A stretch of DNA of 64,000 bases from an uncultured Clostridia bacterium (GTDB lineage Bacteria > Acidobacteriota > Aminicenantia > JAMOAD01): NCBI GenBank assembly GCA_964634755.1, contig CAZWJH010000001.1, positions 12,317-76,316 of the forward strand, given 5' to 3'. The translations under genes were made by a program, and so were the position numbers. This document shows, one piece after another, positions 10,026 through 26,056 of this stretch. The notes under the pieces are model-generated. The model saw nothing but the letters and a program-made list of their open reading frames with translations. It was not told where the DNA came from and made no database searches. Positions within the stretch are counted from its first letter, which is position 1. Every line of letters starts with the position of its first letter.

Positions 10026-11368
10026 ATGTAAAAAAAATAGTAATTTTATTGGTTATATTGGCAGGACTTATCTTCGGAATTTATCTTGCAAACAAAAAGC
10101 AGGAGAAAACCGAAGAGGCCAAGATTCTTGTAAATTTAAAATCCGATGATATTGTTAAAATAGAGCTTACTGAAGGTAAGAAAAAGATTGTTGTTGAGAA
10201 AAAGGATAAAAGCTGGAAAATCGTATCTCCCATAAAAACAAATGCGGATGAGGTTATTGTCGAAAGAATAGTAAGTGATTTTTCAGAGCTTAAACCTGAA
10301 AAAATAGTTGATAAAAATCCTTCTAACCTGAAAAAGTATGGTCTTGAAAATCCGGAAAGAGCAATATCCTTATACTCAAAAACAGGCGAAAAGTACACAA
10401 TTCTTTTCGGAGACAAAGGCCCCTTAGGAGACGAATATTATGCAAAGCTTAAAAACTCGCCAAAGGTGGTTCTTCTGCCATCAATGAAAAGAGATGATGT
10501 AATGAAAACAGTTTCCGATTTGAGGGATAAACATCTTGTTAAAGTTGAGACAGGAGATGTAAAAGGATTTTCAATAAATAACACAAAGGAAAATAAGATA
10601 CTTGAGTTTAAGAGAGCGGATGAAAGATGGTTTTTCCTGAAACCTAAAAAATGTCTTGCAAATGAATCAAAAACAGATGATATTCTTTTCTCAATTCAAA
10701 ATCTTGAAGCAAAGGATATAGTAAAGGATTCTCCTGCTGAAAAAGATTTAAACGATTATAATCTTAAAAACCCTGAAATTAAAATCATAATAAACCTGAA
10801 AGACAGTAAAAAGGAGCTTTTTGTCTCTAAAAAAGGAAAAGATTATTTTGCCTACTCAAAAAACAGCAATTTCATAGGGAAGATAAACAGCACCTTTGTT
10901 GACGATATATCAAAAGATTTTAAGGACTTAAGAGAGAAAAAGGTGGCTGTCTTCTCAGGTTATGAGATAAACAAGATTGAATTTACAGGATACGGAAAAA
11001 CATATCTTATGGAAAAGGATGGAAACGGGACATGGAGGCTTAAAAAACCTGAAAAATTCATTTTACAGGATGAGAAGGTATCCGATTTTATCTCCGCAAT
11101 TGAGGATATGGAATCAAAGGAAATTATTGATAATCCCGGAAATTTGAGTCAATACGGACTTGATAAGCCCTCTATTAAAGTAAAACTTTATCCGGAGGAT
11201 GGAAAACCTATAGTTTTGCTTTTCGGGAAAGAGAAAGATAATGATATTTTTGTGAAAAATCAGGAATTTTCATACATATTTAAGGTTGGTAAGGATTCAC
11301 TTGACAAATTTCCCAAAAAGAGTATAATAGATTGGAAATTTAAGGAAAGTAAAAAAGAGGAAGATTAA
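10022..11368 (+). CDS. DUF4340-like protein, fourth member of the GldAFG-type cluster
   Basis: 448 aa with an N-terminal TM anchor, K/E-rich. Overlaps the upstream stop (ATGA). Confidence 0.5.
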   Translation: MNVKKIVILLVILAGLIFGIYLANKKQEKTEEAKILVNLKSDDIVKIELTEGKKKIVVEKKDKSWKIVSPIKTNADEVIVERIVSDFSELKPEKIVDKNPSNLKKYGLENPERAISLYSKTGEKYTILFGDKGPLGDEYYAKLKNSPKVVLLPSMKRDDVMKTVSDLRDKHLVKVETGDVKGFSINNTKENKILEFKRADERWFFLKPKKCLANESKTDDILFSIQNLEAKDIVKDSPAEKDLNDYNLKNPEIKIIINLKDSKKELFVSKKGKDYFAYSKNSNFIGKINSTFVDDISKDFKDLREKKVAVFSGYEINKIEFTGYGKTYLMEKDGNGTWRLKKPEKFILQDEKVSDFISAIEDMESKEIIDNPGNLSQYGLDKPSIKVKLYPEDGKPIVLLFGKEKDNDIFVKNQEFSYIFKVGKDSLDKFPKKSIIDWKFKESKKEED

Positions 11369-11405
11369 AAACTTCCCTCCTTTTGCCTCCTTTGTTTTTA
11401 TATCA

Positions 11406-11596: not shown

Positions 11597-12826
11597 TCAG
11601 GACAGAAGATTGAATGGTTTTATTACTCTGTCCAGAACTCCCTGAAGCTTGGAAATTGCTATCCCGTAATTCGTCATGGGGACATTTCTTCTTACACTCT
11701 CATTGAGTCTTCTCATCATCTCCATCCTGTTTAGCATACATGCTCCACAGTGGATTACAAGGGAAAATTTTTCAAGCTCCTCAGGAAAATCACTTCCGGA
11801 TGCAATCTCTATATTTAATTCTTTACCTGTGTATTGCAAAAGCCATCTCGGAATCTTAACCCTTCCTATATCATCAGCCTGCACATGATGGGAGCATGCC
11901 TCGGCAATAAGCACATTATCCCCGTCTTTAAGCTCATCTATTTTTTTAGCTCCCTTTACAAATTCGGAAAGTTCCCCTTTGTATCTTGAAAAGAGTATTG
12001 AAAATGTCGTAAGTTTAATGCCCTCCGGAACATCGGCGGAAACCTTAAGAATAACCTGCGAATCAGTAATCACCAATGCCGGTTTTTTAACAAGGTTTCT
12101 CAATGTATCTTCAAGCTCTCTCTCTTTTACAACAACAGCTGTCGCATCATTATCCAGAATCTCCCTTATTGTCTGAACCTGAGGTAAAATCAATCTTCCT
12201 TTGGGAGCTGCAAGATCAATGGGAACCACCAAAACTATTATATCTCCTCCCCTTATAAGGTCTCCCACCAAAACCTTCTCCTCTTTCAAATAAGAGGGCG
12301 CAAGCCTTATTATAAGATTTTTAAGCTCATTTATATTTTCACCTGTTTTTGCGGAGACACAGATATGATTTGCTTCTATCTTATCAGCAAATCTTATATC
12401 CCTTTCAAAAGGCTCTTTAATATCAATCTTGTTAAAAACTATTATGTAAGGAATCTTAAGCTCTTTTATTTCAAGAATAATCTTTTCTGTTTTTTCATCA
12501 ATACCATTTTCATCAACAACAATAAGAGCAAGATCGGATTTGAAAAGTACTTTTTTAGTTGCCTTAACTCTCTTTTCGCCCAACTCTCCCGTATCATCAA
12601 TTCCTGCGGTATCATAAAAAGTAACAGGGCCCAAAGGCAAAAGTTCATAATGTTTTGCGACAGGATCTGTTGTTGTTCCGGCAATATCTGACACTATGGC
12701 GATATCCTGCCCCACAATAGCATTAATAAGAGAGGATTTACCAGCATTCCTTTTACCTACAAGCGAAATTATAAGCCTTTCTCCTCTCGGTGCTTTAGCC
12801 ATACTTTCCTCCTTTACAATAAACAA
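11597..12826 (-). CDS. hydF: [FeFe]-hydrogenase maturation GTPase HydF
   Basis: G1 GKRNAGKSSLINA, G3 DTAG, NKID. C-terminal CxHx(n)HCxxC iron-sulfur motif (AEACSHH...IHCGAC). Confidence 0.85.
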   Translation of the reverse strand: MFIVKEESMAKAPRGERLIISLVGKRNAGKSSLINAIVGQDIAIVSDIAGTTTDPVAKHYELLPLGPVTFYDTAGIDDTGELGEKRVKATKKVLFKSDLALIVVDENGIDEKTEKIILEIKELKIPYIIVFNKIDIKEPFERDIRFADKIEANHICVSAKTGENINELKNLIIRLAPSYLKEEKVLVGDLIRGGDIIVLVVPIDLAAPKGRLILPQVQTIREILDNDATAVVVKERELEDTLRNLVKKPALVITDSQVILKVSADVPEGIKLTTFSILFSRYKGELSEFVKGAKKIDELKDGDNVLIAEACSHHVQADDIGRVKIPRWLLQYTGKELNIEIASGSDFPEELEKFSLVIHCGACMLNRMEMMRRLNESVRRNVPMTNYGIAISKLQGVLDRVIKPFNLLS

Positions 12827-12877
12827 GTAGTAAAACTCGAAATAGACATTTCTATAAAAATTATCATTTCCATTTTA

Positions 12878-13876
12878 TCAATTTTTCCCTTTGAAATTTC
12901 CAATGGCTTCAGAGGGGAAAAACCCTGCTGAGGATATAAGTTGTTTTATTTTTTGTACATCTTCAAGTGTAGAGTTATCACTTTCATTTTTCCCCGGGTA
13001 AATATTGTAAAGTTTTCTCACCTTTAAAGGTGTGACAGTTGGCATTATTACATTGGCTCCGACTATAAGCCCCTGAACCCTTGCATCCTTTTCAAGAGAT
13101 GCCATCGCACTTGTGGAAGGTATATTAGAGTAAGGGTTCAAGATTCTTAAAAGAGAAATTGTTCTCAATGATTTTTTAAGATCACCGCAGGAGTAATCAT
13201 AAAGAGGTGTCTTATTGTGAGGGATAAATGGACCAGATGCAATCATATGAAGTCCTAAGAGTGAAAGCTCCAGAATATCACTTGCAAGGATTTCATCTGT
13301 CATTCCGGGAAGACCTATAATCAGACCCGAACCAACCTCATATCCAAGTTTCATCAAAACCTCTATAAGCTTAAGCCTCTCCTTAAGCTCTCTTCCGGGT
13401 CTCATCCTTTTGTAAAGCTCCTGATCAAAGGTTTCAACTTTTAGAAGATATCGGTTAGCTCCGGCATCTTTCCATCTTTTAAGCTCATCATCGCTCCTCT
13501 CTCCCAATGAAAGTGTTATCGCGAGTGAATCATCCCCGTATTTTCCCCTTATCTTTTTTATTACCTTTTCAATAAATTCTCCCGTATAATAGGGGTCATT
13601 TCCAGATTGAAGAACAACAGTTCCCATTTTGCTTTTCTTAACCAATTCCACAGACCCTATTATTTCATCAAAATTTAATCTGTATCTTTTAAGCTCACTG
13701 TTTTGACATCTTAAGCCGCAGTAAAGGCACTTTTCTTTACAAATATTGGAAAATTCAACTATTCCTCTCAAATAAACCTCTTTCCCGAAAAGTTTTTCCC
13801 TTACTCTTTTACCTTCGGCAAAAAGGGATTTATCATACTTTCCTTGTAAAAACTCTTTAATCTCTCTTAATTTCAT
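12878..13876 (-). CDS. hydE: [FeFe]-hydrogenase maturase HydE (radical SAM, biotin synthase-like)
   Basis: CxxxCxxC radical-SAM motif CKEKCLYCGLR, BioB-like TIM barrel length (332 aa). Sits in the hydG/hydF neighbourhood. Confidence 0.85.
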   Translation of the reverse strand: MKLREIKEFLQGKYDKSLFAEGKRVREKLFGKEVYLRGIVEFSNICKEKCLYCGLRCQNSELKRYRLNFDEIIGSVELVKKSKMGTVVLQSGNDPYYTGEFIEKVIKKIRGKYGDDSLAITLSLGERSDDELKRWKDAGANRYLLKVETFDQELYKRMRPGRELKERLKLIEVLMKLGYEVGSGLIIGLPGMTDEILASDILELSLLGLHMIASGPFIPHNKTPLYDYSCGDLKKSLRTISLLRILNPYSNIPSTSAMASLEKDARVQGLIVGANVIMPTVTPLKVRKLYNIYPGKNESDNSTLEDVQKIKQLISSAGFFPSEAIGNFKGKN

Positions 13877-15260
13877 CTTTGGTATACCCCAATTTGTGCA
13901 TTCTTTTCGGATTTAAAAGATTCTTTATTTCATCTTCGGAAAGATAATTCTTTAAAATTTCCTCAACAGGCAAATTCTTCACTTTTGATTCCTTTATTAT
14001 TTTATCAACTGTCTCATATCCCAAAATAGGAACTAAAATAGTAGCTATTGTTTTACTGTTTTTTAAATTTTCTCCGCACTTTTCAGGATTGGCTCTTATT
14101 CCCTCTATGCACTTTTCCCTGAATATTCTTGTTGCATTTATAAGAAGTTTCAGGGATTCTAAAAACACTTTTGATAGAAGGGGATAAAACTGATTAAGCT
14201 CAAGGTTGCCCGATGAGGCAATCATTGTAATAATATTGTCATTTGAAATCACCCTTAGAGCAATCTGAGAAACAGCTTCGGGGATAACAGGATTAACTTT
14301 GCCCGGCATTATCGATGAGCCTGCTTGAACAGGAGGAAGAATTACCTCCCCTATTCCTCCTTTAGGCCCGCTCGAAAGAATTCTGAGATCAGTTGAAATT
14401 TTAAAAAGATTGGAAGCATAAGCTTTTATCATTCCGAAGACTTCAACATAAGCATCAAGGTTTTGAGTGGCATCAACAAGATTCTCAGCTCTTGCTATGT
14501 TTAAGCCGGTTATTTTTCTTAAAGTTTCGGTAACTTTCAGAATATAATCCCTTGCGGCACCAATTCCCGTACCTATCGCAGTTCCTCCCAGATTAACAGT
14601 CTTTATTCTTTCTCTTGATTTAAAAATTCTCCATCTATCCCTTGATATTGCCTCAGCATATGCCCCGAACTCCATACCCAGAGTCATAGGGACAGCATCC
14701 TGAAGCTGTGTTCTTCCTAATTTAACAATATCCTTAAATTCAAACTCCTTTTTTTGAAAAGCCTCCTGAAGGGCAGCTATCTCTGGCTCAAGTTTTCTCA
14801 AAAGTTTTAAGATTGCGACTTTCAAAGCTGTAGGGTAAACATCATTTGTTGATTGATGCATATTAACATGGTGGAGAGGATTAATATATTCATAATCCCC
14901 TTTTTCCCTTCCAGCCTTTTCAAGGGCAATGTTTGCTATGACTTCATTAAAATTCATGTTCGTGGATGTTCCTGCTCCTCCCTGGTAAGGATTCACTATT
15001 ATTTGCTCATGATACTTTCCTTCTATAATTTCATTGCAGGCAAAAATAATAGGTTCCGCAATTTCTCTTTTAAGATAACCCAACTCTTTGTTTGTTATTG
15101 CGGCTGCTAATTTTACCTTTGCAAAAGCCACTATAAACTCTTCAGGAATTTTATCTCCAGAAAAGGGAAAATTCTCGTAAGCTCTAAGAGTATGAATTCC
15201 GTAATATGCGTCATCGGAAAGCTTTTTCTCTCCTAAGGAATCTCCTTCAACTCTCATCAA
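13857..15260 (-). CDS. aspA: aspartate ammonia-lyase (fumarase/aspartase class II family)
   Basis: 467 aa with the GSSxMPxKxN signature (GSSIMPGKVNP) and a typical class II lyase N-terminus. Embedded between hydG and hydE. Confidence 0.85.
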   Translation of the reverse strand: MMRVEGDSLGEKKLSDDAYYGIHTLRAYENFPFSGDKIPEEFIVAFAKVKLAAAITNKELGYLKREIAEPIIFACNEIIEGKYHEQIIVNPYQGGAGTSTNMNFNEVIANIALEKAGREKGDYEYINPLHHVNMHQSTNDVYPTALKVAILKLLRKLEPEIAALQEAFQKKEFEFKDIVKLGRTQLQDAVPMTLGMEFGAYAEAISRDRWRIFKSRERIKTVNLGGTAIGTGIGAARDYILKVTETLRKITGLNIARAENLVDATQNLDAYVEVFGMIKAYASNLFKISTDLRILSSGPKGGIGEVILPPVQAGSSIMPGKVNPVIPEAVSQIALRVISNDNIITMIASSGNLELNQFYPLLSKVFLESLKLLINATRIFREKCIEGIRANPEKCGENLKNSKTIATILVPILGYETVDKIIKESKVKNLPVEEILKNYLSEDEIKNLLNPKRMHKLGYTKDEIKRD

Positions 15261-15513
15261 TATCCTTCCTTAGCTTGCTTAAAAGTTTTTTAATTTTTAA
15301 TCTATCAGGCTTTTCACAGAAAAGCAAATACCTCTCATTTATCCTGTACATTGAGGGAGGCTCAAAACCTGAGGGCTTTTCACCACATACAAAAGAGATT
15401 CTTCTTCCCATTTTCTCGGCAATCCAGAGTCCACCGCATTCATATTCGGCGGAAATCTCTTTAAGATATTTCTCTATTTTATTAAAAGTAGAGATCTCTT
15501 TCGCCATTCTCAA
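15247..15513 (-). CDS. small hypothetical protein (88 aa), translationally coupled between hydG and aspA
   Basis: Overlaps the hydG stop and the aspA start. Contains two short C(G)EKP repeats. No recognisable family. Confidence 0.35.
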   Translation of the reverse strand: MRMAKEISTFNKIEKYLKEISAEYECGGLWIAEKMGRRISFVCGEKPSGFEPPSMYRINERYLLFCEKPDRLKIKKLLSKLRKDIDES

Positions 15514-16969
15514 TTCTTGTCAAATATTCTTTCAGTTTTTTGTATGCTTTTGGCATCTTTTCCTTAACTTCATTGAGTTCTCTCTCTATAAGAGCATTTC
15601 CTATCTTTGCCGTATCCTCTGTTGCAAAATCCAGAAGCCATTCCTTAAAGGTTGTTATTGCATTTAATTTGCAGTATTTTCCTTCTGTTCCCGCTCTGAG
15701 AAGGTCCATTATGCATTTTCCGGTTCTTCCGCATCTGTAACCCGCAGTACAAAAAGATGTTATGTATCCCATTTTTGCAAGATCTCTTATAAGTTCATCG
15801 AGTGTTCTCGGATCCCCGATTAAAAATTGCTGCCTTTCGAGCTCCTGCTCAGTGTATCTGTCACTGTAAGCTCCTATCCCTATCCTTGTGGATGCATCAG
15901 TTTGAGTGATTCCCAATGACATTACCCTGTCTCTTATCTCTTTAGGCTCTCTCGCAGTTAATATCATTCCTGTATAAGGAATCGCAAGTCTCAGCACAAG
16001 AATTATTTTTTCAAAATTCTCATCACTTACCGCATATTTCGTTTTATCTATGTAAGGTGTGTTTGCGGCAGGCTCAAGTCTCGGAAAAGAAACAGTATGA
16101 GGACCTATTCCAAACTTTTTCTCAAGTTCAAGCGCATGATACAAAAGACCCATAACCTCAAATCTCCAATCATAAAGGCCGAAAAGAGCGCCTATTCCAA
16201 CATCATCCACTTCAGCTTCAAGGGCTCTGTGCATACAATAAAGCCTCCATTTGTAATTTCCCTTTAAAGTATTCTGAGGATGAACCATTTTGTATGTTTC
16301 ATGATGATAGGTTTCCTGAAATACCTGATATGTTCCTATACCCACCTCTTTAAGCCTTCTGAGTTCATCAATCTGAAGAGGTGCAGCATTAACATTTGCT
16401 CTCCTTATCTGCCCGTAACCATTTCTTACATTTACTTTCACATCATAGATTGTTCTCAAACTATTTTCAATATAATTAACATCGGTTTTCGGATGCTCTC
16501 CGTAAACAACAATAAGTCTCTTGTGCCCTATCTCCCCGGCAAGCACCTCAGCCTCTCTTCTTATTTCCTCTTCATTTAAAACCCTTCTTTTTATAATTTT
16601 ATTTTCAAGTCTGAATCCGCAGTAAAGACAATTGTTAACACAATAATCTCCCATGTATAAAGGAGCAAAGGTTACTATTCGGTTATCGTAAACCTTTAAT
16701 TTGATTTTAAGAGCAACCTCCTTCATCTCTTCGTAAAGCTCCGGGTCTTTGAGGTTTATAAGCATTGCAGTTTCATCCGGAGAGAGAGTTTCAATTCTCA
16801 AAGCTTTGTCAAAAATCTCTCTTATTCTTACGGGATCCGGGTCTCTGTTCTCCTCTATCTTTCTCCAGATCTCCTCATCATTGATAAAATCATGCTCCCC
16901 GTCCATATACTTTGTAATCTCTTCCTCTTTTATCCTGTTTGCTATCCAGGAATTTAAACTTTCTTTCAT
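15482..16969 (-). CDS. hydG: [FeFe]-hydrogenase maturase HydG (radical SAM tyrosine lyase, ThiH-like)
   Basis: N-terminal CNNCLYCGF radical-SAM motif and the C-terminal auxiliary-cluster motif CTAGYRCGRTGKC. 495 aa. Confidence 0.9.
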   Translation of the reverse strand: MKESLNSWIANRIKEEEITKYMDGEHDFINDEEIWRKIEENRDPDPVRIREIFDKALRIETLSPDETAMLINLKDPELYEEMKEVALKIKLKVYDNRIVTFAPLYMGDYCVNNCLYCGFRLENKIIKRRVLNEEEIRREAEVLAGEIGHKRLIVVYGEHPKTDVNYIENSLRTIYDVKVNVRNGYGQIRRANVNAAPLQIDELRRLKEVGIGTYQVFQETYHHETYKMVHPQNTLKGNYKWRLYCMHRALEAEVDDVGIGALFGLYDWRFEVMGLLYHALELEKKFGIGPHTVSFPRLEPAANTPYIDKTKYAVSDENFEKIILVLRLAIPYTGMILTAREPKEIRDRVMSLGITQTDASTRIGIGAYSDRYTEQELERQQFLIGDPRTLDELIRDLAKMGYITSFCTAGYRCGRTGKCIMDLLRAGTEGKYCKLNAITTFKEWLLDFATEDTAKIGNALIERELNEVKEKMPKAYKKLKEYLTRIENGERDLYF

Positions 16970-16982
16970 TTTAATACCTCCT

Positions 16983-17384
16983 TTAAAAAGCTATTATCTT
17001 TGAGTTGTACAGCAAATTTCTTAATTTTTTTGTTTCTTGATGAAGACGCACGGGTCGTGCGTCTCTACATGCTTTTGGCTTTTGACTGCTCGGCTTTTGT
17101 TGACTTTCGACTTTCAACTTTTGACTTTCGACTTTCGACAACAATGTTTTTACCTCAACTCCCCTGAGCTGTCCGAGTTTACCGGTCAATGCGCCCAATT
17201 CATCTGTAGTACCCTCAAAAATTATGGAAATCACTCTTACGGATTCCTCTTTGAAAGGAATACCCAATCTTCCCTTGATCAAATGGAAATAGGATGAAAG
17301 GATTTGATTGATTTTTTTATAATTTTTGGGATTGTAGACAAATATACCTATTATCCCGAATCTCTTTTTGTTTTCCATTTTCAC
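16983..17384 (-). CDS. TM1266-family putative iron-only hydrogenase system regulator (ACT/NikR-like fold) with a repeat-encoded low-complexity C-terminal tail
   Basis: The first ~82 aa match the small hydrogenase-cluster regulator family (GIIGIFVYN...GRLGIPF...VISIIFEG). The C-terminal ~50 aa (KVESQKLKVESQQ...) is encoded by a heptamer tandem repeat plus a GC hairpin. RBS GGAGGTG upstream. Confidence 0.55.
   Translation of the reverse strand: MKMENKKRFGIIGIFVYNPKNYKKINQILSSYFHLIKGRLGIPFKEESVRVISIIFEGTTDELGALTGKLGQLRGVEVKTLLSKVESQKLKVESQQKPSSQKPKACRDARPVRLHQETKKLRNLLYNSKIIAF
17042..17065. other. GC-rich hairpin (GAAGACGCACG-ggtc-CGTGCGTCTC) about 75 nt upstream of the hydG start
   Basis: 9-10 bp perfect G/C-rich inverted repeat with a 4-nt loop. 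Lies inside the 3' tail of the regulator ORF and upstream of hydG. Confidence 0.5.
17071..17140. repeat. 7-nt tandem repeat array: (GCTTTTG)x2 then (TTCGACT-like)x6
   Basis: Period-7 direct repeats visible by eye at 17099-17140 (gttgact ttcgact ttcaact tttgact ttcgact ttcgaca). Translated as 7-aa periodic KVESQ repeats in the regulator tail. Confidence 0.6.
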
Positions 17385-17432
17385 CTCCTTGGGTCAGGCA
17401 AAAGCCCTTCCCTCAGAAAACTCTTATTTTGA

Positions 17433-17663
17433 TTAAATTTTACTGTATGCTATTTTTAAATTATCAATTTCTTTTAAATCTTTTAAAAGCTCCTCAAAAA
17501 TTTCCTCTTCTCCCTTAAAAACCACACTCAAAATATAGCCATGATTTTCTGTTTGTGGCAAGCCCATTCTTCCCAATATAAATTCAGCATTTTTGTGCAG
17601 TATTTCATTAATCTCAGGAGCCCTTTTGTTTGCATCCATCAAAATAGTAATTGTCCCTATCAT
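17433..17663 (-). CDS. second TM1266-family small regulator paralog (76 aa)
   Basis: Same pattern as the neighbouring gene (ILMD...ILGRMGLP...ILSVVFKGEEE). Immediately downstream of the hydA stop. Confidence 0.55.
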   Translation of the reverse strand: MIGTITILMDANKRAPEINEILHKNAEFILGRMGLPQTENHGYILSVVFKGEEEIFEELLKDLKEIDNLKIAYSKI

Positions 17664-17664
17664 T

Positions 17665-19473
17665 TTAATGATGTTTGTGAGTTAATTCCTTAACACAGGT
17701 TCCCTTTTCAAGATCTCTTTCAAAATAACAAGTATGAAGAAGTCTGTGAGCAATATCTGAGCCGGGGGATTTGAGGAACTTTTCATAAACTTTTTTAATT
17801 GCCGGATTTTCATGAGAGCATCTCATCGGAAGTTCTCTGTCTTCTTTGTAAAGTCCCTCTCCTCTTCTTGCCCTTCTTGCAAGATCACTTCCATAGGGCT
17901 GTCCGCCTCCACCAACACAACCACCGGGGCATGCCATTATTTCAATAAATGCATACTCACTCTTTCCGGTCTCTTCTATCTGTTTTCTCACTTTTGTTAA
18001 AAGCTCTCGTGCGTTTCCGAGCCCGTGGGCAACTGCCACCTTAAGTTTCATTCCTGCAATTTCAAGCTCTGCTTCTTTTATACCCTGCATTCCTCTGACT
18101 GCTTCAATATCAAGGTTCTTAAGATTTTCTCCTGTGAGCAAAAAGTATGCGGATCTTACAGCAGCTTCCATAACACCTCCGGTAGCTCCAAAGATGGTTG
18201 CAGCTCCCGTATATGCTCCCATAAGATCATCCGCCTTTTCCTCAGGAAGGTTCTTAAAATCTATACCTGCTTCCTTTATCATTCTGACAAATTCTCTTGT
18301 GGTTAAAACATAATCAACATCCTGATACCCTGAATCTCTCATCTCAGGTCTTCGAGCCTCAAATTTTTTAGCTGTACAGGGCATAATTGAAACACTGACT
18401 ATTTTTGCAGGGTCAATACTGTACTCTTGAGCAAAATATGTTTTGGTTAATGTTCCGAACATTTGCTGAGGTGATTTGCAGGTTGAAGTATATTTTGCAA
18501 AATCAGGAAAATATGTTTCCATAAATTTAATCCAGCCGGGGGAACAGGAAGTAATGAGAGGAAGAGGTCCCCCTTCTTTTATTCTGCCAACAAGCTCAGT
18601 ACCCTCTTCCATTATCGTAAGATCAGCTGAAAAATTTGTATCAAAAACATAATCAAAACCTAATTTTTTAAGAGCAGCATACATTTTCCCCACGGTAACA
18701 GTTCCGGGTTCCATTCCGAACTCTTCTCCCAATGTAACTCTGATAGCAGGAGCTTCCTGAACAACAACAACTTTTTCAGGATCAAGCAGAGCTTCCCAGA
18801 CTTCATCTATCTCTGACCTTTCCCTTAATGCTCCTGTTGGACAAAATACGGTACATTGACCGCAATTCACACAAACACTGTTTCCAAGACCTTCTTTAAA
18901 AAATGTATTTACATTAACTTCAAATCCCCTGTCAGCAAAAGTGATTGCATGAACAGTCTGAACTTCATTACATACGGTTACACATCTTCCGCAGGCTATA
19001 CATTTGTTTGGGTCTCTTATAATAGCAATGCTTGTTTCATCAAGAGGTTTATATTCAAGGATTTGATCCAAAGTTTTTGTGTCAACTCCCATATTGTTAG
19101 CAAGCTCCTGAAGTTCACATTTTCCGTTAGCAACACAGCTCGGACAGGAAACATCATGGTTGGATAATATCATCTCTATAACAGTCTTTCTCATCTGTCT
19201 CAATCTAACTGAATTAGTCGTCACCTTCATTCCTTCACTTACAGGTGTACAGCAGGATCTTTTCGGTACTGGAGAGCCTTCGACTTCCACAACACAAACC
19301 CCACATGCTCCGGTGGGCTTTAAATCAGGATGATAGCAAAGAGTCGGAATTGTTGCTCCGACCTTTTTTGCTGCTTCAAGGATAGTCGTTCCTGCCGGAA
19401 CTTCAACTTCTTTACCATCAATGTATAATTTTACTTTATCAGGCATATAAGACCTCCTTATTATTTTTTTCAT
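17665..19473 (-). CDS. hydA: [FeFe]-hydrogenase catalytic subunit HydA (multidomain: 2Fe-2S, His-ligated 4Fe-4S, 2x 4Fe-4S ferredoxin, H-domain)
   Basis: L2 MPCTAKKFE and L3 EIMACPGGCVGGGGQP are canonical. L1 is TSCSPGW, non-canonical. N-terminal plant-type 2Fe-2S cysteines, HxxxCxxCxxxxxC, then CIACGRC and CVNCGQC. The real start is likely ATG at 19446 (MPDKVKLYIDG), overlapping the hydB stop. Confidence 0.9.
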   Translation of the reverse strand: MKKIIRRSYMPDKVKLYIDGKEVEVPAGTTILEAAKKVGATIPTLCYHPDLKPTGACGVCVVEVEGSPVPKRSCCTPVSEGMKVTTNSVRLRQMRKTVIEMILSNHDVSCPSCVANGKCELQELANNMGVDTKTLDQILEYKPLDETSIAIIRDPNKCIACGRCVTVCNEVQTVHAITFADRGFEVNVNTFFKEGLGNSVCVNCGQCTVFCPTGALRERSEIDEVWEALLDPEKVVVVQEAPAIRVTLGEEFGMEPGTVTVGKMYAALKKLGFDYVFDTNFSADLTIMEEGTELVGRIKEGGPLPLITSCSPGWIKFMETYFPDFAKYTSTCKSPQQMFGTLTKTYFAQEYSIDPAKIVSVSIMPCTAKKFEARRPEMRDSGYQDVDYVLTTREFVRMIKEAGIDFKNLPEEKADDLMGAYTGAATIFGATGGVMEAAVRSAYFLLTGENLKNLDIEAVRGMQGIKEAELEIAGMKLKVAVAHGLGNARELLTKVRKQIEETGKSEYAFIEIMACPGGCVGGGGQPYGSDLARRARRGEGLYKEDRELPMRCSHENPAIKKVYEKFLKSPGSDIAHRLLHTCYFERDLEKGTCVKELTHKHH

Positions 19474-21058
19474 TAATTTTTTTCAAGAATTCTTCCTTAA
19501 AATTATCTATTGCGCTTGCGACAGGCATAATTACCGACTGCCCCAAAGGACAGAGAGAAAGATTTCTCATTGTCTCGGCAATATGCTTCATCTTTTTAAG
19601 ATCTTCTTCCTTACCTTCACCGGTTTTAATTCTATAGATAATCTCCAAAAGCTGTCTTGTTCCTATCCTACATGGAGAACACTGCCCACAGGATTCATGG
19701 GCAAAAAACTTCAAAATAGAAAAAAGCATTTCAACAATTGAGGCATCCTCATTCATAACCAAAATTGCTCCTGAGCCCAAAACAGCCATCTGTTCTTTCA
19801 AATTTTCAAAATCCATTTTAACATCCAAGAGTTTATCCGATAAAAACACCCCTGCAGCTCCTCCTACAAGGGCAGCTTTGAATTTTTTTCCATTTTTAAC
19901 TCCTCCCCCGTAAGCATTTATAATTTCTCTGAGTGGAGTTCCCATTTCAACTTCTATAAGTCCCGGATATTCAACATCTCCTAATACAGTAAAAACTTTT
20001 GTTCCGGGAGATTTTTCAGTACCCAATGCTCTGTACCATTCCGCTCCTTTCAAAATAATCACCGGAACATTTGCCAAAGTTTCAACATTATTAACAACTG
20101 TAGGGTTTTGCCATAATCCATGAGTTACAGGATAGGGAGGTTTTATTCGCGGTTGTCCTCTCTTTCCTTCCAATGATTCTATGAGAGCTGTTTCCTCACC
20201 GCATACATAAGCACCGGCACCTTTTTTAACTTCTATATCAAAATTTAAACCAGTTTCAAGGATATTTTTTCCCAAAAGACTAAATTTTTTAGCATCCTCA
20301 ATAGCTCTATTAATTCTATCTATTGAAAGCTGATACTCACCTCTTATGTAGATATATCCCTTTTTAGCACCAACAGCATAGCCTGCTATTATCATTGCTT
20401 CAAGAAGCTTGTGAGGATCTCCTTCTAAAATTAATCTATCTTTATATGTTCCCGGTTCTCCTTCATCAGCATTGCAAATAACAAACTTTTCATCACCTTT
20501 TGCTTTTCTGGTAAATTCCCATTTAAGTCCTGTAGGAAATCCTGCTCCACCTCTTCCTCTTAAACCTGATTTCTTTATTTCCTCTATTACCTGTTCTGGA
20601 CTAATTTTTTCTTCTAAAATTTTTTCAAGAGCCGCATATCCGCCTCTGGCAATTACTTCTTCTATATCAAAAGTATTTACAATACAGCATTTATCCAGAA
20701 CAACTCTCGGCTGCTCTCTCGTAAGCCCTATATTCTCATAATCAACTACATTTTTTCTACCCTCTCCATCAATACTGTTTTCAACACTCTCACAAACCTT
20801 TCCTTTTAAAATATGCTGCTCAACGATATTCTTTGTATCTTTGGGAGTAACATTATAGTAATAAACTCTGTCCGGATAAACAATTAAAACAACACCTCTT
20901 CCTGAAATCCCTACAGGTCCGGTCTCAAGAACTTTAACCTCCTCTTCCACTCCATGCTTAAAGAGCTCTTTATTCAATCTTCTTTTTACTTCAAGCGCAC
21001 CATTTTGAATTGCCTCTTCATCCATAGGAATTAATATATGCATTCTTTGAAAACTCAT
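19439..21058 (-). CDS. hydB: hydrogenase flavoprotein subunit HydB (NuoF-like, FMN/NAD-binding) with an N-terminal Cys-less thioredoxin-like domain
   Basis: [21 protein letters not shown] motif and a 4Fe-4[13 protein letters not shown]. No C-terminal ferredoxin domains. The N-terminal Trx-like domain lacks the usual Cys. Confidence 0.85.
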   Translation of the reverse strand: MSFQRMHILIPMDEEAIQNGALEVKRRLNKELFKHGVEEEVKVLETGPVGISGRGVVLIVYPDRVYYYNVTPKDTKNIVEQHILKGKVCESVENSIDGEGRKNVVDYENIGLTREQPRVVLDKCCIVNTFDIEEVIARGGYAALEKILEEKISPEQVIEEIKKSGLRGRGGAGFPTGLKWEFTRKAKGDEKFVICNADEGEPGTYKDRLILEGDPHKLLEAMIIAGYAVGAKKGYIYIRGEYQLSIDRINRAIEDAKKFSLLGKNILETGLNFDIEVKKGAGAYVCGEETALIESLEGKRGQPRIKPPYPVTHGLWQNPTVVNNVETLANVPVIILKGAEWYRALGTEKSPGTKVFTVLGDVEYPGLIEVEMGTPLREIINAYGGGVKNGKKFKAALVGGAAGVFLSDKLLDVKMDFENLKEQMAVLGSGAILVMNEDASIVEMLFSILKFFAHESCGQCSPCRIGTRQLLEIIYRIKTGEGKEEDLKKMKHIAETMRNLSLCPLGQSVIMPVASAIDNFKEEFLKKINEKNNKEVLYA

Positions 21059-21519
21059 TTTTCCCTCCTCTTTTCCTCAATAATCGATTTTAATCTTTCG
21101 GGGGTAAGATTTCCATAAACTTTATTGTTTATCATAATCGCGGGAGCAACGCCGCAAACACCTAAGCATGAGCTCATTTCAAGAGTGAACAAACCATCTT
21201 TAGTAGTTTCCCCGAATTTAATCCCTAATATTTTCATAAGTTCCTTTGAAATAGTAGTGGAGCCCATAAGATGACAGGGAGGGGATTGACAAACTCTTAT
21301 GACATATTTTCCCCTTGGTTTAAAAGCATACATTGAATAAAATGTTGCAACTCCATGAACAGTGCTCAAAGGAAGTCCCAAATATTCTGAAACAGCTTTC
21401 AAATCTTCCTTTGAAAGATAATGTTCCTCTTTCGAATCCTGAAGTTCATGGAGAATTGCAAGCAAATTTTCACTCTTTTTCTCGTATTTTTCCAATATTT
21501 CTTTCATTTTACACCTCAC
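21055..21519 (-). CDS. hydC: hydrogenase subunit HydC (NuoE-like thioredoxin-fold 2Fe-2S)
   Basis: CQSPPCHL...CLGVCGVAP NuoE-type 2Fe-2S motif. Overlaps the hydB start and the upstream fusion-gene stop. Confidence 0.85.
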
Positions 21520-24500
21520 AGCATCTCTTCAAGGGATTTATGTTTTTTTTCAGCCTTTTTCTTTAATAAAGACTTACCTCTATCACAGTGAAGACATCTT
21601 CTTGCCTCTTCTATAGCATCTTCAAGACTCATTCCCTTGTTAACTTCAAGAGCCATTGATCTAATTCTTTCCTTTACATCAGAATACTCAGGCTTTTTTC
21701 TTGAGATTGTCTTAAGATACGCTTCCTCATCATAATCAGGAACATATTCGCCTCTCTCATCCTCAAAAAGTTTACCTTCATATCCGAAATATTTATCAAT
21801 CGCAATGGCAGCTTTTCTACCTTGAGCAACAGACTCAATCACTGTGGAAGGATAAATCGCATCTCCTCCAGCAAAAACACCTTCTTTCGAAGTCATCATT
21901 GTTTCCGGGTCTACCTTAAGATGCCCGTTTGAATAAAGTTCAAGCCCTGCATGAAGTTTGCTCATAGTAAGTTTTTGACCAATACAGGGAATCACAAGAT
22001 CAGCTTTAACTGTAAACTCAGTTCCCTCAACAGGAACAGGTCTTCTTCTCCCGCTATCATCAAATTCACCCAATTCTGTTCTTATAAATTTAACAGCTTT
22101 TACTTTTCCGTTTTCATCTTTTATTATTTCAAGAGGATTTGTTAGAAACTCAAATTCAATTCCCTCTTCTTCACTCTCTACTATTTCTTCCTGTAAAGCT
22201 GGCATTTCAGCTTTTGTTCTTCTATAAACAATTTTCACATTCTTAGCCCCAAGTCTTAAAGCTGTTCTGGCAGCATCTGTGGCGGTTGAACCTCCGCCGA
22301 CGACAATCACATTTTCACCAACTTCAACATCTTCTCCCAAATTTATCTTTCTCAGAAAATCTATACCACTTATAACTCCTTCGACATCTTCTCCCTTGAT
22401 ATTCATTCTTCTCGAAGTATGAGCCCCTGTTGCAATGAAGACAGCATCAAAGCCTTCTTTTTTAAGTTTGTCCAAGGATTCAACTCTCGTATTGAGCCTA
22501 ATTTCAACACCAGCTTTTTCTATTATTTCTATCTCTTTTAGCGTCACTTTTTTGGGTAATCTGTACTCCGGTATTCCAACTGTCATCATCCCACCCGGTA
22601 TTGGCAGAGCTTCAAAAACAACGGGTTTGTATCCCATTCTTGTAAGATAAAAGCCACATGCAAGGCCAGCAGGACCGGCACCTACAATCGCAATCTTTTC
22701 TTTTTTGGGATTCTCCGGAGGAGCAAATTTAGGCGGCTCACTTAAAGCCCAGTCTGCAAAAAGTCTTTTAACCTCTCTTATTGCCACAGGCTCATCAAAT
22801 TTACCTCTTTCACACCTTTTTTCACAAAAGGCGGGGCAAACTCTAGCGCAAACCGAAGGAAAAGGATTATTCTTCATATGGGTGTAGTATGCAAGCTCGA
22901 GTTTGCCCTCTGCCATATAGGAGATATATCTTGCTGCGTCCACATTAGCCGGACAATTGTTTTCACAAGGAGCATAAAACAGTGAAGCACAAACTCCCGC
23001 TTCACACTCCTTATCAACAATATGCTTTATATATTCATCTCTGAAATATTTTAAAGTCGATAAAACAGGATTTGGAGCTGATTGCCCTAATCCGCAAAGG
23101 GAGGTAGCTTTTATTGTTTCACCCAAATCCTGAAGTCTGTCAAGGTCCTCCAATTTACCCTCTCCCTTTGTTATTCTGTCAAGAATTTCATACATCTGTC
23201 TTAAACCTACTCTACAGGGAGAACACTGTCCGCAGGATTCTTCTATTGAAAATTCAAGAAAGAATTTTGCCATATTAACCATACAGGTATCCTCGTCCAG
23301 AACAATAAGCCCTCCTGATCCCATAATTGATCCCAGTGCTTTTAATGATTCATAATCAATTGGAGAATTCAAAAATTGTTTGGGAATACATCCACCAGAG
23401 GGCCCTCCTGTTTGAACAGCTTTAAATTTCTTACCATTAGGTATTCCTCCTCCGATATCATAAACAAGTTCTCCGAGAGTTATTCCCATAGGAACTTCCA
23501 CAAGCCCGGTGTTTCTGACATTTCCCGAGAGAGCGAAAACTTTTGTTCCTTTACTCTTCTCGGTTCCAATCGAAGCAAACCATGAAGCACCGTTCAAAAT
23601 TATGTGTCTTATATTAGCAAGAGTCTCAACATTATTAATTAAAGTGGGTTTACCCCATAATCCCTTTTGTGCGGGATAAGGAGGCTTGGGTCTCGGCTGC
23701 CCTCTTTCTCCTTCAATAGAAGCAATAAGAGCTGTTTCCTCTCCGCAAACAAAAGCTCCTGCTCCCATTCTAAGCTCTATATCAAAAGAGAAATCTGTCT
23801 CAAAAATATTTTTTCCTAAAAGGCCTAATTCTTTAGCCTGTTTAATAGCTATTTCAAGTCTCTTTATTGCAAGGGGATACTCAGCTCTAACATAAATATA
23901 GCCCATATTTGCGCCAATTGCATACCCTGCAATTGCCATACCTTCCAAAACAGCATGGGGGTCTCCTTCTAATACAGCTCTATCCATAAAAGCACCGGGG
24001 TCTCCCTCATCAGCATTACAAACAACATATTTTTGATCGCCTTTTGAAGCTCTCGTAAACTTCCATTTTAATCCTGTAGGAAACCCTGCTCCTCCTCTTC
24101 CTCTGAGACCAGAATTTATCATCTCTTCGATAACATCTTCAGGCTTCATCTCTGTTAAAACCTTCCCCAAAGCTTCGTATCCTCTTTGGGCAATATACTC
24201 ATTTATATTTTCAGGATCAATCTTACCGCAGTTGGAAAGAACTATTTTTTTCTGTTTCTCAAAAAATGGAATCTGTTTTTTCTCTTCAACTATCTTTCTT
24301 GCTTCCGGGGTTTCCCAGAGAAGCCTTTTTACGGGTCTTCCCTTTAGAAAGTGTTCCTCCACCAATTCCTCTATGTCTTCTTCTTTAAGCTTTATATAAA
24401 AGGAACCATCTGGATAAACAACCATAACAGGCCCCAATTCGCAAGGTCCCATACACCCTGTTTCCACAACATTTATTTCATCGGAGAGCCCTTTTTCCTC

Positions 24501-24593
24501 TATTACTTTAATCAATTTATCTTTTATTTCATGGCTATGAGAGGAGATACAGGCTCCCCCTCCGCATACTAAAACATCAAGTCTTTTTGCCAT
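21516..24593 (-). CDS. NuoF-like flavoprotein fused to a glutamate synthase small-subunit (GltD/NfnB-like) NADPH oxidoreductase domain
   Basis: 1025 aa. N-terminal Trx-like 2Fe-2S domain with its Cys retained (CGGGAC...ETGCMGPC), NuoF FMN motif [25 protein letters not shown], then GltD-type 2x 4Fe-4S ([14 protein letters not shown]; [13 protein letters not shown]) and a Rossmann [18 protein letters not shown] domain. Confidence 0.8.
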
Positions 24594-24962
24594 TTAGCCC
24601 TCCTCTTTAACTTCTAAAATGTACTCTGAAACCGGATTCCCATTAACAATGTGCTCAGCTATTATCTTTCTTGCAACATTATCACTAACATCACCATAAA
24701 CAATTGTGGGTTTACCTTTTTCATAAACAGTGATAACCGGTTCATGAGAGGAAAGTCCTCTTTCTCCGCTTTGAGTTATTAATATATCTCTGAGTTCTCT
24801 TTTTTCTATTTCATTCAAAAGTGCCTTTAAAGTCTCCCTTGCTCCCGAAGCAATTCCGCTTGTTCCCATACTTACAACTATCTTTACTCTTGCTCTCCCT
24901 TCTCTTAAATTCATATCCTTTGAATATTTTTCCCTAATCTTTTTTAAATCAGATAATTTCAT
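24594..24962 (-). CDS. thioredoxin-like ferredoxin-fold protein lacking the cluster-ligating cysteines
   Basis: 122 aa. Matches the Trx-like 2Fe-2S Fd domain layout, but all four ligand positions are Ser (SMGTSGIASG ... GLSSHEP). Confidence 0.5.
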   Translation of the reverse strand: MKLSDLKKIREKYSKDMNLREGRARVKIVVSMGTSGIASGARETLKALLNEIEKRELRDILITQSGERGLSSHEPVITVYEKGKPTIVYGDVSDNVARKIIAEHIVNGNPVSEYILEVKEEG

Positions 24963-24972
24963 TTTAACCTCC

Positions 24973-25473
24973 TTAATTTTCTTCTGCTTTTTTAAAATCT
25001 TTTATTATATTTATAGCTTTTTGAGGACTTAATCTTCCGAATACTTCCTCATCAATCACCATAACAGGAGCAAGACCACAGGCGCCAAAACATCTTGCCG
25101 TTGAAACAGTATAAAATTTGTCCTCTGTAGTTCCACCAACCTCAACGCCTAACTCTTTGCAAAGAGCATCCAAAATAACCTTTGAACCCTTAACATGACA
25201 GGCAGTACCAGTGCAAACATTAATAACATGTTTTCCTATTGGCTCTGTTCTGAAAAAATTATAAAAAGTTACAACTCCGTAGATCTCGGAAAGAGGTACA
25301 TTAAGATGCATTGAAACGAATTTTTGAACTTCAGCTGGCAAATAACCGAAAATACTCTGAGCTTTATGAAGAACCTGAATAAGAGGACCGGGGGTATTCC
25401 GATGCTCATCAATAAACTTTTTCAATGCCCGATACTCTTCATTATCGGGGATATGAAACCTTGCGCTATCCAT
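24973..25473 (-). CDS. second NuoE-like 2Fe-2S subunit
   Basis: CTGTACHVKG...ARCFGACGLAPV NuoE-family motif. 166 aa. Confidence 0.8.
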   Translation of the reverse strand: MDSARFHIPDNEEYRALKKFIDEHRNTPGPLIQVLHKAQSIFGYLPAEVQKFVSMHLNVPLSEIYGVVTFYNFFRTEPIGKHVINVCTGTACHVKGSKVILDALCKELGVEVGGTTEDKFYTVSTARCFGACGLAPVMVIDEEVFGRLSPQKAINIIKDFKKAEEN

Positions 25474-25482
25474 AAAAACCTC

Positions 25483-25824
25483 CTATAAATCCGATTTTTC
25501 TATTAACAAATTATAAATTTTTCCCGAAAGCTCAAAAGCTCCTTCATTAGATCGTAATAAAAAGATTCCTTCTCCCTTTGCTTTCTTAATCACCTCACTA
25601 TCAGGCATCCCGCCATTTGCAATTATAATTGCTGAAATTTTTTTCAATTGTGCAACAGCAATTATATTCATATGCCTTTGAACAGTTATCCATAGATTAC
25701 CTTCTTCAGCATGAGCCATAACATTTGACAAAAGATCAGAAGTGTAGCCCCCCGTTATTTCCCTATCCTCTCCTTCTGCCAAAACATTAAGATTAAAAGC
25801 ATTTATAAGGTTTTTTACTTTCAT
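25483..25824 (-). CDS. DRTGG-domain protein (first gene of the hydrogenase operon)
   Basis: Small protein with a DRTGG-like core (EGEDREITGGYTSDLLSNVM). Such proteins commonly lead [FeFe] hydrogenase operons. The start was reassigned to ATG at 25824 (GGAGAAACA RBS). The track ORF extends to 25893. Confidence 0.55.
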   Translation of the reverse strand: MKVKNLINAFNLNVLAEGEDREITGGYTSDLLSNVMAHAEEGNLWITVQRHMNIIAVAQLKKISAIIIANGGMPDSEVIKKAKGEGIFLLRSNEGAFELSGKIYNLLIEKSDL

Positions 25825-25855
25825 TGTTTCTCCATTTGTTAAAATCTTAACAAAA

Positions 25856-25884
25856 AGGTATATTAATATAATATATTTTTTACA
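25856..25884 (-). promoter_or_regulatory. putative sigma-70 promoter of the hydrogenase supercluster (-35 TTGACA, ~17 nt spacer, -10 TATATT)
   Basis: On the minus strand: TTGACA (25884-25879), then TATATT about 17 nt later. About 30 nt upstream of the reassigned DRTGG start. Confidence 0.35.
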
Positions 25885-26056
25885 AAGTGTCAAGTCTTTT
25901 TTGTTAATTATTTCACGATAACGAAGATTTGGTTTTAACCCTTCTTTTTACCTCTTACCCACTTTATTTATGTACTTTTTTCTATAATGATTTATTAATT
26001 TTTTCCTCTCTTTTTCTAAAAATTTATCTTTTTTGTACTTTGGTCTAAATTTCTCT

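Follow-up and report, generated by a model that had tools for sequence, protein, structure and literature searches.

A fourteen-gene [FeFe]-hydrogenase cluster

The DNA analysed in this study (the window) is a 64,000-nucleotide (nt) stretch of contig CAZWJH010000001.1 from an uncultured bacterium (assembly GCA_964634755.1), and it carries a [FeFe]-hydrogenase gene cluster in which two unlike diaphorase modules are encoded ahead of a single catalytic subunit. Fourteen open reading frames (ORFs) lie in an uninterrupted run on the minus strand (11597–25893), a unit of about 14.4 kb. In order of transcription they encode a DRTGG-domain protein, a NuoE-like protein (C' or NuoE'), a free-standing thioredoxin-like protein (D), a NuoF–GltD fusion (B*, also called B1), HydC, HydB (B2), HydA, two TM1266-like proteins, HydG, a small conserved protein, AspA, HydE and HydF. 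Pfam and NCBIfam searches at curated cutoffs agreed with all fourteen identities, and with the gene order, that had been proposed in a preliminary description of the locus. The cofactor motifs are intact across the products of the fourteen genes, the C-terminal motif of HydG being a variant.

For comparison, 80 genome loci and several metagenome loci (denoted by L and a number) were annotated by BLAST against the window proteins, together with direct look-ups of gene context. The same gene order was present on independent assemblies, with all fourteen genes on L001 and L002 and a truncated copy on L003, and therefore the cluster is not a chimera or an assembly artefact. In addition, L089 gave a near-identical match to the N-terminus of HydB.

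Two unlike NuoE/NuoF sets precede one HydA

The structural block reads NuoE'(C')-D-B*-HydC-HydB-HydA, i.e. two NuoE/NuoF sets and one catalytic subunit. The preliminary description was silent on the two sets being of different kinds and sharing one HydA.

Within this block, the gene at 21516–24593 (minus strand) encodes B*, a fusion protein of 1025 amino acids (aa). Its Pfam and NCBIfam domains and its Cys map give the order N-terminal [2Fe-2S] domain, NuoF (with the flavin mononucleotide (FMN) site, SLBB and [4Fe-4S]), CxxxxC, two [4Fe-4S] clusters (DPD_II/Fer4_20), a flavin adenine dinucleotide (FAD)/NADPH domain (GltD) and a C-terminal RCLHC tail. Residues 4–587 align to the bifurcating HydB 7t2r_B, and the four Cys of the N-terminal [2Fe-2S] site, the Cys of the NuoF [4Fe-4S] site and the CxxxxC pair are all retained. 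Bifurcating HydB proteins are distinguished by A or E at position 232 of Thermotoga maritima HydB, M at 234, F at 367 and GGPSG at 427–431, and non-bifurcating ones by T or S at 232, K, S or A at 234, Y at 367, the lack of GGPSG and fewer Fe-S domains (Losey 2020, PMC7311640). B* shows the bifurcating pattern, with AFM, F and GGPSG.

The 2×[4Fe-4S] ferredoxin domain of canonical HydB is replaced in B* by DPD_II and a FAD-binding GltD-type module, which carries an NADPH-type GGGxxA...YRR site with the YRR motif kept. Residues 541–1004 can be aligned over their whole length with the GltD inserts of StnC (8oh5_C) and 9bov_A, and residues 541–943 with that of the Nfn-Bfu protein NfnA (9n5u_A), at scores of 332–409 bits against the three chains. 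The module is circularly permuted relative to NfnB and GltD, and the StnC insert has the same permutation: the RCLxC segment that opens NfnB (an invariant RCLHC here) lies at the C-terminus of B*, at residues ~965–1004 (window 21516–21720, minus strand). The FAD of StnC is reported to be a non-bifurcating NADPH port, and Lys609, invariant in 13 B* sequences, aligns to K170 of StnC at a position where NfnB has Glu. As read from its sequence, B* is a bifurcating-type NuoF core with the ferredoxin domain swapped for a StnC-like FAD/NADPH module, which is predicted to be wired through the two [4Fe-4S] clusters. This fusion architecture has been noted computationally before, as the “sub-type I” BfuB of Hydrogenedentota (PMC11406978) and in archaeal hybrid hydrogenases (PMC11216029). 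A scan of a genome collection with a B* alignment gave no close relative among the matches listed, the best being at 58%.

The same features bear on the proposal that B* is doubly bifurcating and ferredoxin-dependent, with the GltD FAD bifurcating as in NfnB and ferredoxin docking at its [4Fe-4S] clusters. A possible second (FAD) bifurcation centre has been proposed for such an architecture (PMC11406978), a low-potential acceptor has been assumed at the glutamate synthase domain of such HydB proteins (PMC11216029), and the module scores nearly as high against StnC (332 bits) as against NfnB (351 bits). However, the two marks of an NfnB-type bifurcating FAD module, the Glu ligand on the FAD-proximal [4Fe-4S] cluster and the non-permuted topology, are both missing from B*: the cluster-ligand Glu of NfnB is the invariant Lys, as in StnC, and the topology is that of StnC and NfnA. 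The StnC FAD has been shown to be non-bifurcating. We consider double bifurcation decidedly improbable.

Two small subunits accompany B*. C' (24973–25473, minus strand) is a NuoE/HoxE-like [2Fe-2S] subunit of the first diaphorase module (PF01257, 167 bits; Cys87, 92, 128 and 132). D (24594–24962, minus strand) is a free-standing, HndB/HydD-like thioredoxin-like domain of 122 aa, which has no Pfam match and contains no Cys; it aligns to the N-terminal domain of the BfuB-type chains 9n5u_B and 8oh5_B. The D gene adjoins B1 in most related loci.

The second module is of a different kind. HydC (21055–21519, minus strand; likely start ATG 21507) is again a NuoE-like [2Fe-2S] protein (PF01257, 175 bits; NF005722, 152.8 against a cutoff of 141; Cys77, 82, 118 and 122). 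HydB (19439–21058, minus strand) is a minimal NuoF-type protein of 539 aa, as judged by Pfam and NCBIfam, its Cys map and alignment to 7t2r_B. All four Cys of its N-terminal thioredoxin-like domain are replaced, it lacks both CxxxxC and the C-terminal ferredoxin domain, and it ends directly after the NuoF [4Fe-4S] site, while the FMN, NADH and [4Fe-4S] motifs are retained. Its signature residues are TYK, Y and GGAAG, which is the non-bifurcating pattern and departs from the bifurcating one. A metagenome scan with the Cys-less N-terminal domain of HydB found the same organism only. HydB and HydC are described here as a pair predicted to be of the minimal, ferredoxin-independent, NADH-only type. 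The NuoF cores of B* and HydB are ~53–55% identical and the NuoE proteins C' and HydC only ~36–37%; the two NuoE/NuoF sets are old paralogues. Neither B* nor HydB has the full Bfu cluster set B1–B5 (PMC9304861).

HydA (17665–19473, minus strand; likely start 19446) is the M3-type [FeFe]-hydrogenase catalytic subunit, with scores of 859 against 765 for NF040763, 539 against 406 for TIGR02512 and 337 bits for Fe_hyd_lg_C. Its H-cluster motifs are TSCSPGW (P1), MPCTAK (P2) and EIMACPGGCVGG (P3), which, by the test of P1 TSCxPxW, P2 MPCxxK, P3 ExMxCxxGCxxG and a curated family score, identifies it as a group A catalytic subunit. The motif of the His-ligated (A4) cluster is present as H106-C110-C113-C119. 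Among solved structures, it is closest to the HydA1 chains 8a6t_A (electron-bifurcating hydrogenase subunit HydA1) and 7q4v_A, which we take to be those of Thermoanaerobacter kivui and Acetobacterium woodii, respectively. The Ser in P1 was considered as a lost Cys and this was rejected, as the Ser form occurs in 39 of 44 related HydA proteins and also in 7q4v_A.

Comparison with known hydrogenases

The trio HydC-HydB-HydA has the same subunit types as Hyd1ABC of Syntrophomonas wolfei and HydAB of Syntrophus aciditrophicus (PMC5626996, PMC7311640). As in those enzymes, the window HydB has all three non-bifurcating signatures (T.K, Y and no GGPSG) and no extra Fe-S domains, and the window HydA passes the NCBIfam model “NADH-dependent [FeFe] hydrogenase, group A6”. 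Unlike in S. wolfei and S. aciditrophicus, a bifurcating-type diaphorase set precedes the trio in the same operon, and HydB keeps a Cys-less N-terminal thioredoxin-like domain.

The first module has its own precedents. The domain architecture of B* is that of sub-type I BfuABDC of Hydrogenedentota (PMC11406978) and of the archaeal HydB with a glutamate synthase domain (PMC11216029), with D and a NuoE-like C upstream in each case; both studies are computational only and left the function open. The order in both kinds of cluster is C-D-B*-A, the catalytic subunit coming right behind B*, whereas in the window a second, non-bifurcating C-B pair is inserted between B* and the sole A. Compared with the Stn and Nfn-Bfu NfnABC enzymes (PMC7483475, PMC10482914, PMC12018979, PMC11829005), the GltD module of B* is homologous, with the same permutation and the same Lys, and the B core is of the bifurcating Bfu type. 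In those enzymes, however, it is the A (NuoG-like) subunit that houses the module, and BfuB still has a ferredoxin domain. In the window, the module is joined to B, where it replaces the ferredoxin domain, and A is a genuine hydrogenase, which places the locus outside the Stn/Nfn-Bfu group.

With the canonical HydABC/HndABCD enzymes of T. maritima, A. woodii, T. kivui and Desulfovibrio fructosovorans, the window shares an M3-type HydA, NuoE/NuoF partners and the A4 motif; the C-D-B order is that of Hnd, and the accessory DRTGG gene is found in many Firmicutes operons. Unlike these enzymes, no window subunit has the complete B1–B5 set with the C-terminal 2×[4Fe-4S] domain, and there are two B and two C subunits per A. 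Literature searches, which covered the papers on Bfu, Stn and archaeal hydrogenases, that of Losey and that on Hydrogenedentota, yielded no account of the tandem two-diaphorase layout, an absence that is not proof of novelty.

The six-gene block recurs in several phyla with exchanged catalytic subunits

The arrangement C'-D-B1-C-B2 followed by a single catalytic subunit was found in the window clade (L087, L088) and, beyond it, in a Spirochaetes metagenome-assembled genome (MAG; L004/5), a Chrysiogenales MAG (L090), a metagenome contig (L092), Clostridia (L049), Verrucomicrobiota (L030) and Caldisericota (L071 and L079). In a Bipolaricaulota locus (L063), B1-C-B2 is present and no catalytic subunit lies downstream within the available sequence; this phylum probably also shares the pairing of a bifurcating B1 and a non-bifurcating B2 with a single catalytic subunit. 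HydA fills the catalytic role in the window clade, L030, L071 and L079, whereas a 900-aa molybdopterin formate dehydrogenase (FdhA) does so in L004/5, L049, L090 and L092. The C-terminus of B1 also varies, being a GltD module in the window clade, L004, L030, L090 and L092, a classical ferredoxin domain in L049 and L063, and neither type in Caldisericota. The signature residues are uniform: all 11 B2 proteins are of the non-bifurcating type, and all 82 B* and long-B proteins of the bifurcating type. In a simple neighbour-joining tree of the NuoF cores, calculated without support values, all B2 proteins formed one clade and the B1 proteins of the six-gene blocks another, except for that of L030. 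A conserved hydrogenase/formate-dehydrogenase chassis with two predicted diaphorase modules, here with an NADPH-port fusion, is the noteworthy feature of the locus.

The best explanation of this arrangement is that the single HydA is served by two unlike diaphorase modules and acts as a dual-mode hydrogenase linked to NADH and NADPH; we infer the composition of the complex and its substrates from the gene content, and our judgement on it is evenly balanced. In HydABC of known structure, the His-ligated A4 cluster of HydA connects two protomers electrically, over ~9 Å. In the window enzyme, HydA dimers might carry HydBC, B*C'D, or both. HydBC would provide direct, ferredoxin-independent coupling of NADH and H2, as in S. 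wolfei, while B*C'D would supply a core of the bifurcating type with FAD/NADP(H) at the end of its low-potential branch, so that H2 would be coupled to NADH plus NADPH. NADP(H) would then take the place that ferredoxin has in canonical bifurcating enzymes, and NADPH could act in confurcation. Physiological NADPH is more reducing than NADH. A more demanding version, in which the six structural genes form one heteromeric, ferredoxin-independent hydrogenase that confurcates NADH and NADPH and has a direct NADH bypass, its HydA dimer bearing the non-bifurcating module at one side and the bifurcating-type module at the other, on a chassis reused with formate dehydrogenase in other phyla, seems to us rather unlikely.

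Several points weigh against a HydA shared by both modules. C'-D-B* sets with a HydA of their own occur in L006, L017, L093 and L094, among which Anoxybacter L006, L093 and L094 have the plain order C'-D-B*-HydA. An orphan set lies in L091 (6581–11036), in the order PHP - NuoE' - HATPase - D - B* and then an ABC (ATP-binding cassette) transporter, with a HydS-like sensory hydrogenase upstream, and many B* loci have only a NuoG-like partner of ~230–270 aa (e.g. L019, L039, L043, L046, L048 and L050). Given these sets with their own HydA, with a mini NuoG-like protein or with no adjacent catalytic subunit, B* may act without the window HydA. The two modules could compete, alternate, or belong to separate enzymes, and alternating complexes on HydA are a rival to simultaneous ones. 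The NADPH assignment of the B* module follows from motif similarity to NfnB and StnC, and ferredoxin could dock somewhere on B* or HydA. In addition to the simplicity of the tree, the locus sample was baited with B1-like sequences, and neither the frequency of the six-gene block nor the exclusiveness of B2 can be read from it.

The orphan set in L091 and the many B* loci with a short NuoG-like partner fit a second explanation, namely two enzymes in one operon: a non-bifurcating, NADH-dependent HydABC and an independent B*-NuoE'-D flavoprotein. The latter would act either as a transhydrogenase between NADH and NADP+, possibly with a link to ferredoxin, or as an NAD(P)H diaphorase, and would balance the nucleotide pools while the hydrogenase vents NADH. 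Two loci, L007 and L017, do contain two complete operons side by side, and the HydA closest to that of the window (72% in the H-cluster domain), in L007, follows a short B, which suggests that HydA belongs with HydBC. Two separate enzymes are nevertheless harder to reconcile with the five diaphorase genes, which stay in order while HydA and FdhA swap across phyla; that all five serve the catalytic subunit is the easier explanation. Moreover, the solved Bfu B-C core exchanges its third electron stream via the A subunit (PMC9304861), and no second A is present here. We thus regard two enzymes as possible though on balance doubtful.

Bifurcating hydrogenases and formate dehydrogenases determine what is thermodynamically feasible in fermentation and syntrophy, and the sequence features that decide bifurcation and partner use are still debated. 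In the locus, as in the conserved six-gene block at large, a single catalytic subunit is combined with one diaphorase of the bifurcating and one of the non-bifurcating type, and the window clade swaps a ferredoxin domain for an NADPH port. If the modules cooperate, NADH and NADPH could be disposed of as H2 or formate with no need for ferredoxin; this would alter redox-balance models for many uncultured anaerobes, and the locus would amount to a natural experiment on the Bfu bifurcation mechanism. If the six genes form one enzyme confurcating NADH and NADPH, the Bfu superfamily would gain a new mode of coupling. The self-contained operon of enzyme, regulators and all maturases would also be a convenient cassette for heterologous expression, and the cultured Thermanaeromonas toyohensis and Zhaonella formicivorans are tractable organisms for B*.

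In these two cultured Bacillota (L093 and L094, respectively), the C'-D-B*-HydA set stands beside genes for a HydS-like sensory hydrogenase, HATPase, DRTGG and PHP proteins and hyd maturases; in L093, these are followed by the gene for a sigma-54 activator whose sensor domain resembles a hydrogenase. An Asgard MAG, Promethearchaeota archaeon Loki_b31 (L048, 9430–13758), encodes a NuoE protein, a B*-type NuoF–GltD fusion and a short NuoG-like protein.

Maturation and putative regulator genes

Directly after hydA, the cluster encodes two TM1266-like proteins. The first (17433–17663, minus strand), a putative regulator of 76 aa, scores 45.7 against a cutoff of 27 for PF21699 and 53.5 for TIGR03959, below the cutoff of 60.8. 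The second (16983–17384, minus strand) passes TIGR03959 (100.5 against 60.8) and matches PDB entry 2nzc (E = 5e-13). Membership of the TM1266 family is thus given by TIGR03959 for the second copy and by Pfam only for the first, and both genes are near hyd maturase genes. A 7-nt tandem repeat, GACTTTC, is present in 5.4 copies at 17102–17139, exactly where the conserved core of the second protein ends; past the repeat follows a C-terminal extension of ~45 low-complexity residues that is absent from relatives (89–101 aa). A change in the copy number of this repeat would shift the reading frame of the gene.

HydG (15482–16969, minus strand) is a radical S-adenosylmethionine (SAM) maturase (TIGR03955, 464 against 312) with a CX3CX2C motif at Cys110, 114 and 117. 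Its C-terminal motif (residues 405–433) reads FCTAGYRCGRTG...C, compared with the canonical FCTACYRxGRTG...C. In the resulting C407-X5-C413...C433, the outer Cys residues are at the canonical CX2CX22C spacing and the middle one is displaced by 3 residues. The displaced-Cys variant is common to L088 (17516–19003) and Caldisericota L079 (16395–17870), while L008 and L085 are canonical.

A small conserved ORF of 86–88 aa (15247–15513, minus strand) lies at the hydG/aspA junction, overlapping the end of hydG and the start of aspA, and matches no Pfam or NCBIfam family. The 88-aa product is 47% identical to that of the ORF at the same position in L088, with the shared motif SFVCG..PSGFE.P, and 68–76% identical to those of three closer clusters. 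An AlphaFold2 model built from 4 sequences had a mean pLDDT (predicted local distance difference test) score of 49.6, too poor for use. The ORF may encode an unrecognised accessory protein of H-cluster maturation.

The next gene (13857–15260, minus strand) encodes an aspartate ammonia-lyase-like class II lyase, AspA (NF008909, 645 against 510; TIGR00839, 558, below the cutoff of 681). HydE (12878–13876, minus strand) is a radical-SAM maturase of the short form, without a second cluster site (TIGR03956, 297 against 255; Cys46, 50 and 53 in CX3CX2C). The last gene (11597–12826, minus strand) encodes the GTPase scaffold HydF (TIGR03918, 575 against 326; Pfam HydF_dimer and HydF_tetramer), with the cluster site CxH...HCxxC formed by Cys311, His313, His359, Cys360 and Cys363. 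An AGGAGG ribosome-binding site precedes the ATG at 12802, where HydF probably starts.

The order TM1266-like, hydG, aspA, hydE in the window presumably matches TM1266–TM1269 of T. maritima. Unlike the T. maritima set, the window has two TM1266 paralogues and the extra 88-aa ORF between hydG and aspA, has hydF attached, and lies directly downstream of a multimeric hydrogenase. The corresponding T. maritima genes had been called dispersed in the preliminary description; we take this to hold for hydF and hydABC only, which are presumably located elsewhere, and TM1266-hydG-aspA-hydE to be contiguous. Linkage of aspA to hyd genes has been published, with aspA near hydE and hydF as in the window, along with evidence that AspA can supply ammonium for the dithiomethylamine bridge (PMC11736057). 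By analogy, the AspA-like lyase of the window is the probable ammonium donor for this bridge.

The co-localisation of structural and maturase genes, which had been presented as unusually compact, does prove to be a minority arrangement, though not a unique one. Of the 41 non-redundant HydA loci in the B1-baited sample, 8 have a nearby maturase or associated gene (TM1266-like, aspA). All three maturase genes within the available sequence were found in L008 only; L079 also has three, its HydE being cut by the end of the locus. Loci with both structural and maturase genes occur in Armatimonadota (L008), Caldisericota (L079), Thermanaeromonas toyohensis (L093) and Zhaonella formicivorans (L094), and an operon of Shewanella oneidensis likewise unites structural and maturation genes in one locus (PMC7460606). 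The cluster thus lies at the complete end of a known spectrum, an uncommon but known layout, to which the name supercluster may fairly be given.

Boundaries and junctions of the cluster

The gaps between consecutive ORFs are, in order, 9, 10, 0, -4, -4, -35, 1, 48, 13, -32, -14, -20 and 51 nt, which confirms that most junctions overlap or are shorter than 50 nt. The run of minus-strand genes extends beyond the cluster to ~46.4 kb, and because of this, co-directionality alone is not distinctive.

A promoter-like site, TTGACA-17 nt-TATATT (25865–25893, minus strand), matches 11 of 12 consensus positions and is the best sigma-70-like match of the scan on the minus strand. The site falls inside the extra 5' sequence of the first ORF. 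About 40 nt downstream of it, behind a GGAGA ribosome-binding site, comes the ATG at 25824. The first gene therefore most likely starts at this ATG (25483–25824, minus strand; ORF to 25893) and encodes a putative regulatory or accessory protein of 113 aa, the length that gene callers also give on L001 and L002. Its match to Pfam DRTGG is weak (29.4 bits against a cutoff of 25.2), and a DRTGG gene precedes many related Bfu-type operons. At the other end, a terminator-like hairpin with a T-run (11358–11377, minus strand) lies between hydF and the convergent plus-strand gene. In the consensus scan, no terminator-like site was found in any intergenic gap of the cluster; internal promoter and terminator matches were at chance density, and none fell within an intergenic gap. 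An Rfam scan of the window found three tRNAs only, and no riboswitch or leader near the cluster.

The tight junctions, the promoter-like site upstream, the terminator-like site downstream and the gaps free of terminator-like sites are compatible with the one or few transcripts that had been suggested. What weighs against it is that the two flanking sites are consensus matches only, of a kind found at near-chance density. We infer that the region is one operon-like unit on the chromosome of an anaerobe, in which putative regulators, a multimeric [FeFe]-hydrogenase and a full H-cluster assembly line would be co-transcribed. The putative regulators are the DRTGG protein and both TM1266-like proteins, and the assembly line comprises HydG, HydE, HydF, the AspA-like lyase and a small lineage-specific protein.

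Inheritance of the cluster and the host lineage

The preliminary description had also raised the possibility of a mobile or laterally transferred island, and comparison of base composition and codon usage with the flanking genes gave no such signal. The G+C content at third codon positions is 0.297 in the cluster and 0.276 in the flanks (p=0.16), and the cluster shows no increase in Karlin codon-bias distance from the flanks (p=0.14). The total G+C content is 0.365 in the cluster against 0.338 in the flanks; this small excess, absent at third positions, is in keeping with the amino-acid composition of Fe-S flavoproteins. The flanks contain housekeeping genes (Era, malic enzyme, DnaJ, RNase Y, PheT, ThrRS (threonyl-tRNA synthetase), ArgRS (arginyl-tRNA synthetase) and FtsK). 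Neither an integrase nor a transposase gene lies next to the cluster, and the closest tRNA gene is ~10 kb away.

A self-contained mobile island of fourteen genes, recently gained by lateral transfer, would account for the self-sufficiency of the cluster in enzyme, regulators and maturases, and mobility of Bfu clusters has been reported (PMC11406978). It would also fit the two relatives with 83% and 79% identical B* (L087 and L088), in which the core from DRTGG to HydG is kept while the flanks and 3' ends differ: L087 ends after hydG, and L088 is without hydF. Furthermore, the diaphorase proteins are 62–78% identical to those of Spirochaetes MAGs (L004), whereas ThrRS (41693–43627, minus strand) is at most ~63% identical to named lineages. 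Against this stand the third-position and codon-usage values, which are indistinguishable from the flanks, the housekeeping surroundings and the identity tiers of B* in the clade (97, 93, 88, 86, 83 and 79%), which roughly parallel those of ThrRS among MAGs (97, 87, 77 and 71%), as vertical descent predicts. A recent island is hence very improbable, while an ancient spread of the diaphorase block between phyla is likely.

The best ThrRS matches among named lineages are relatives in Aminicenantes, Thermodesulfobacteriota and Nitrospirota. Given the identity of at most ~63%, the host belongs to a deeply branching uncultured lineage. The G+C content of the window is ~34%.

Three further genes were noted outside the cluster. 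About 5 kb upstream of it, the gene at 30955–31692 (minus strand) encodes a 245-aa product whose homologue in L001 matches IstB_IS21 and, weakly, DnaA AAA; no transposase partner was seen, and the gene lies between those for a sigma factor and a MoxR ATPase. A 692-aa ORF on the plus strand (48490–50568) has no Pfam match at E<=1e-8. A 448-aa ORF, also on the plus strand (10022–11368), has no NCBIfam match and adjoins a gene for a GldG-like ABC component.

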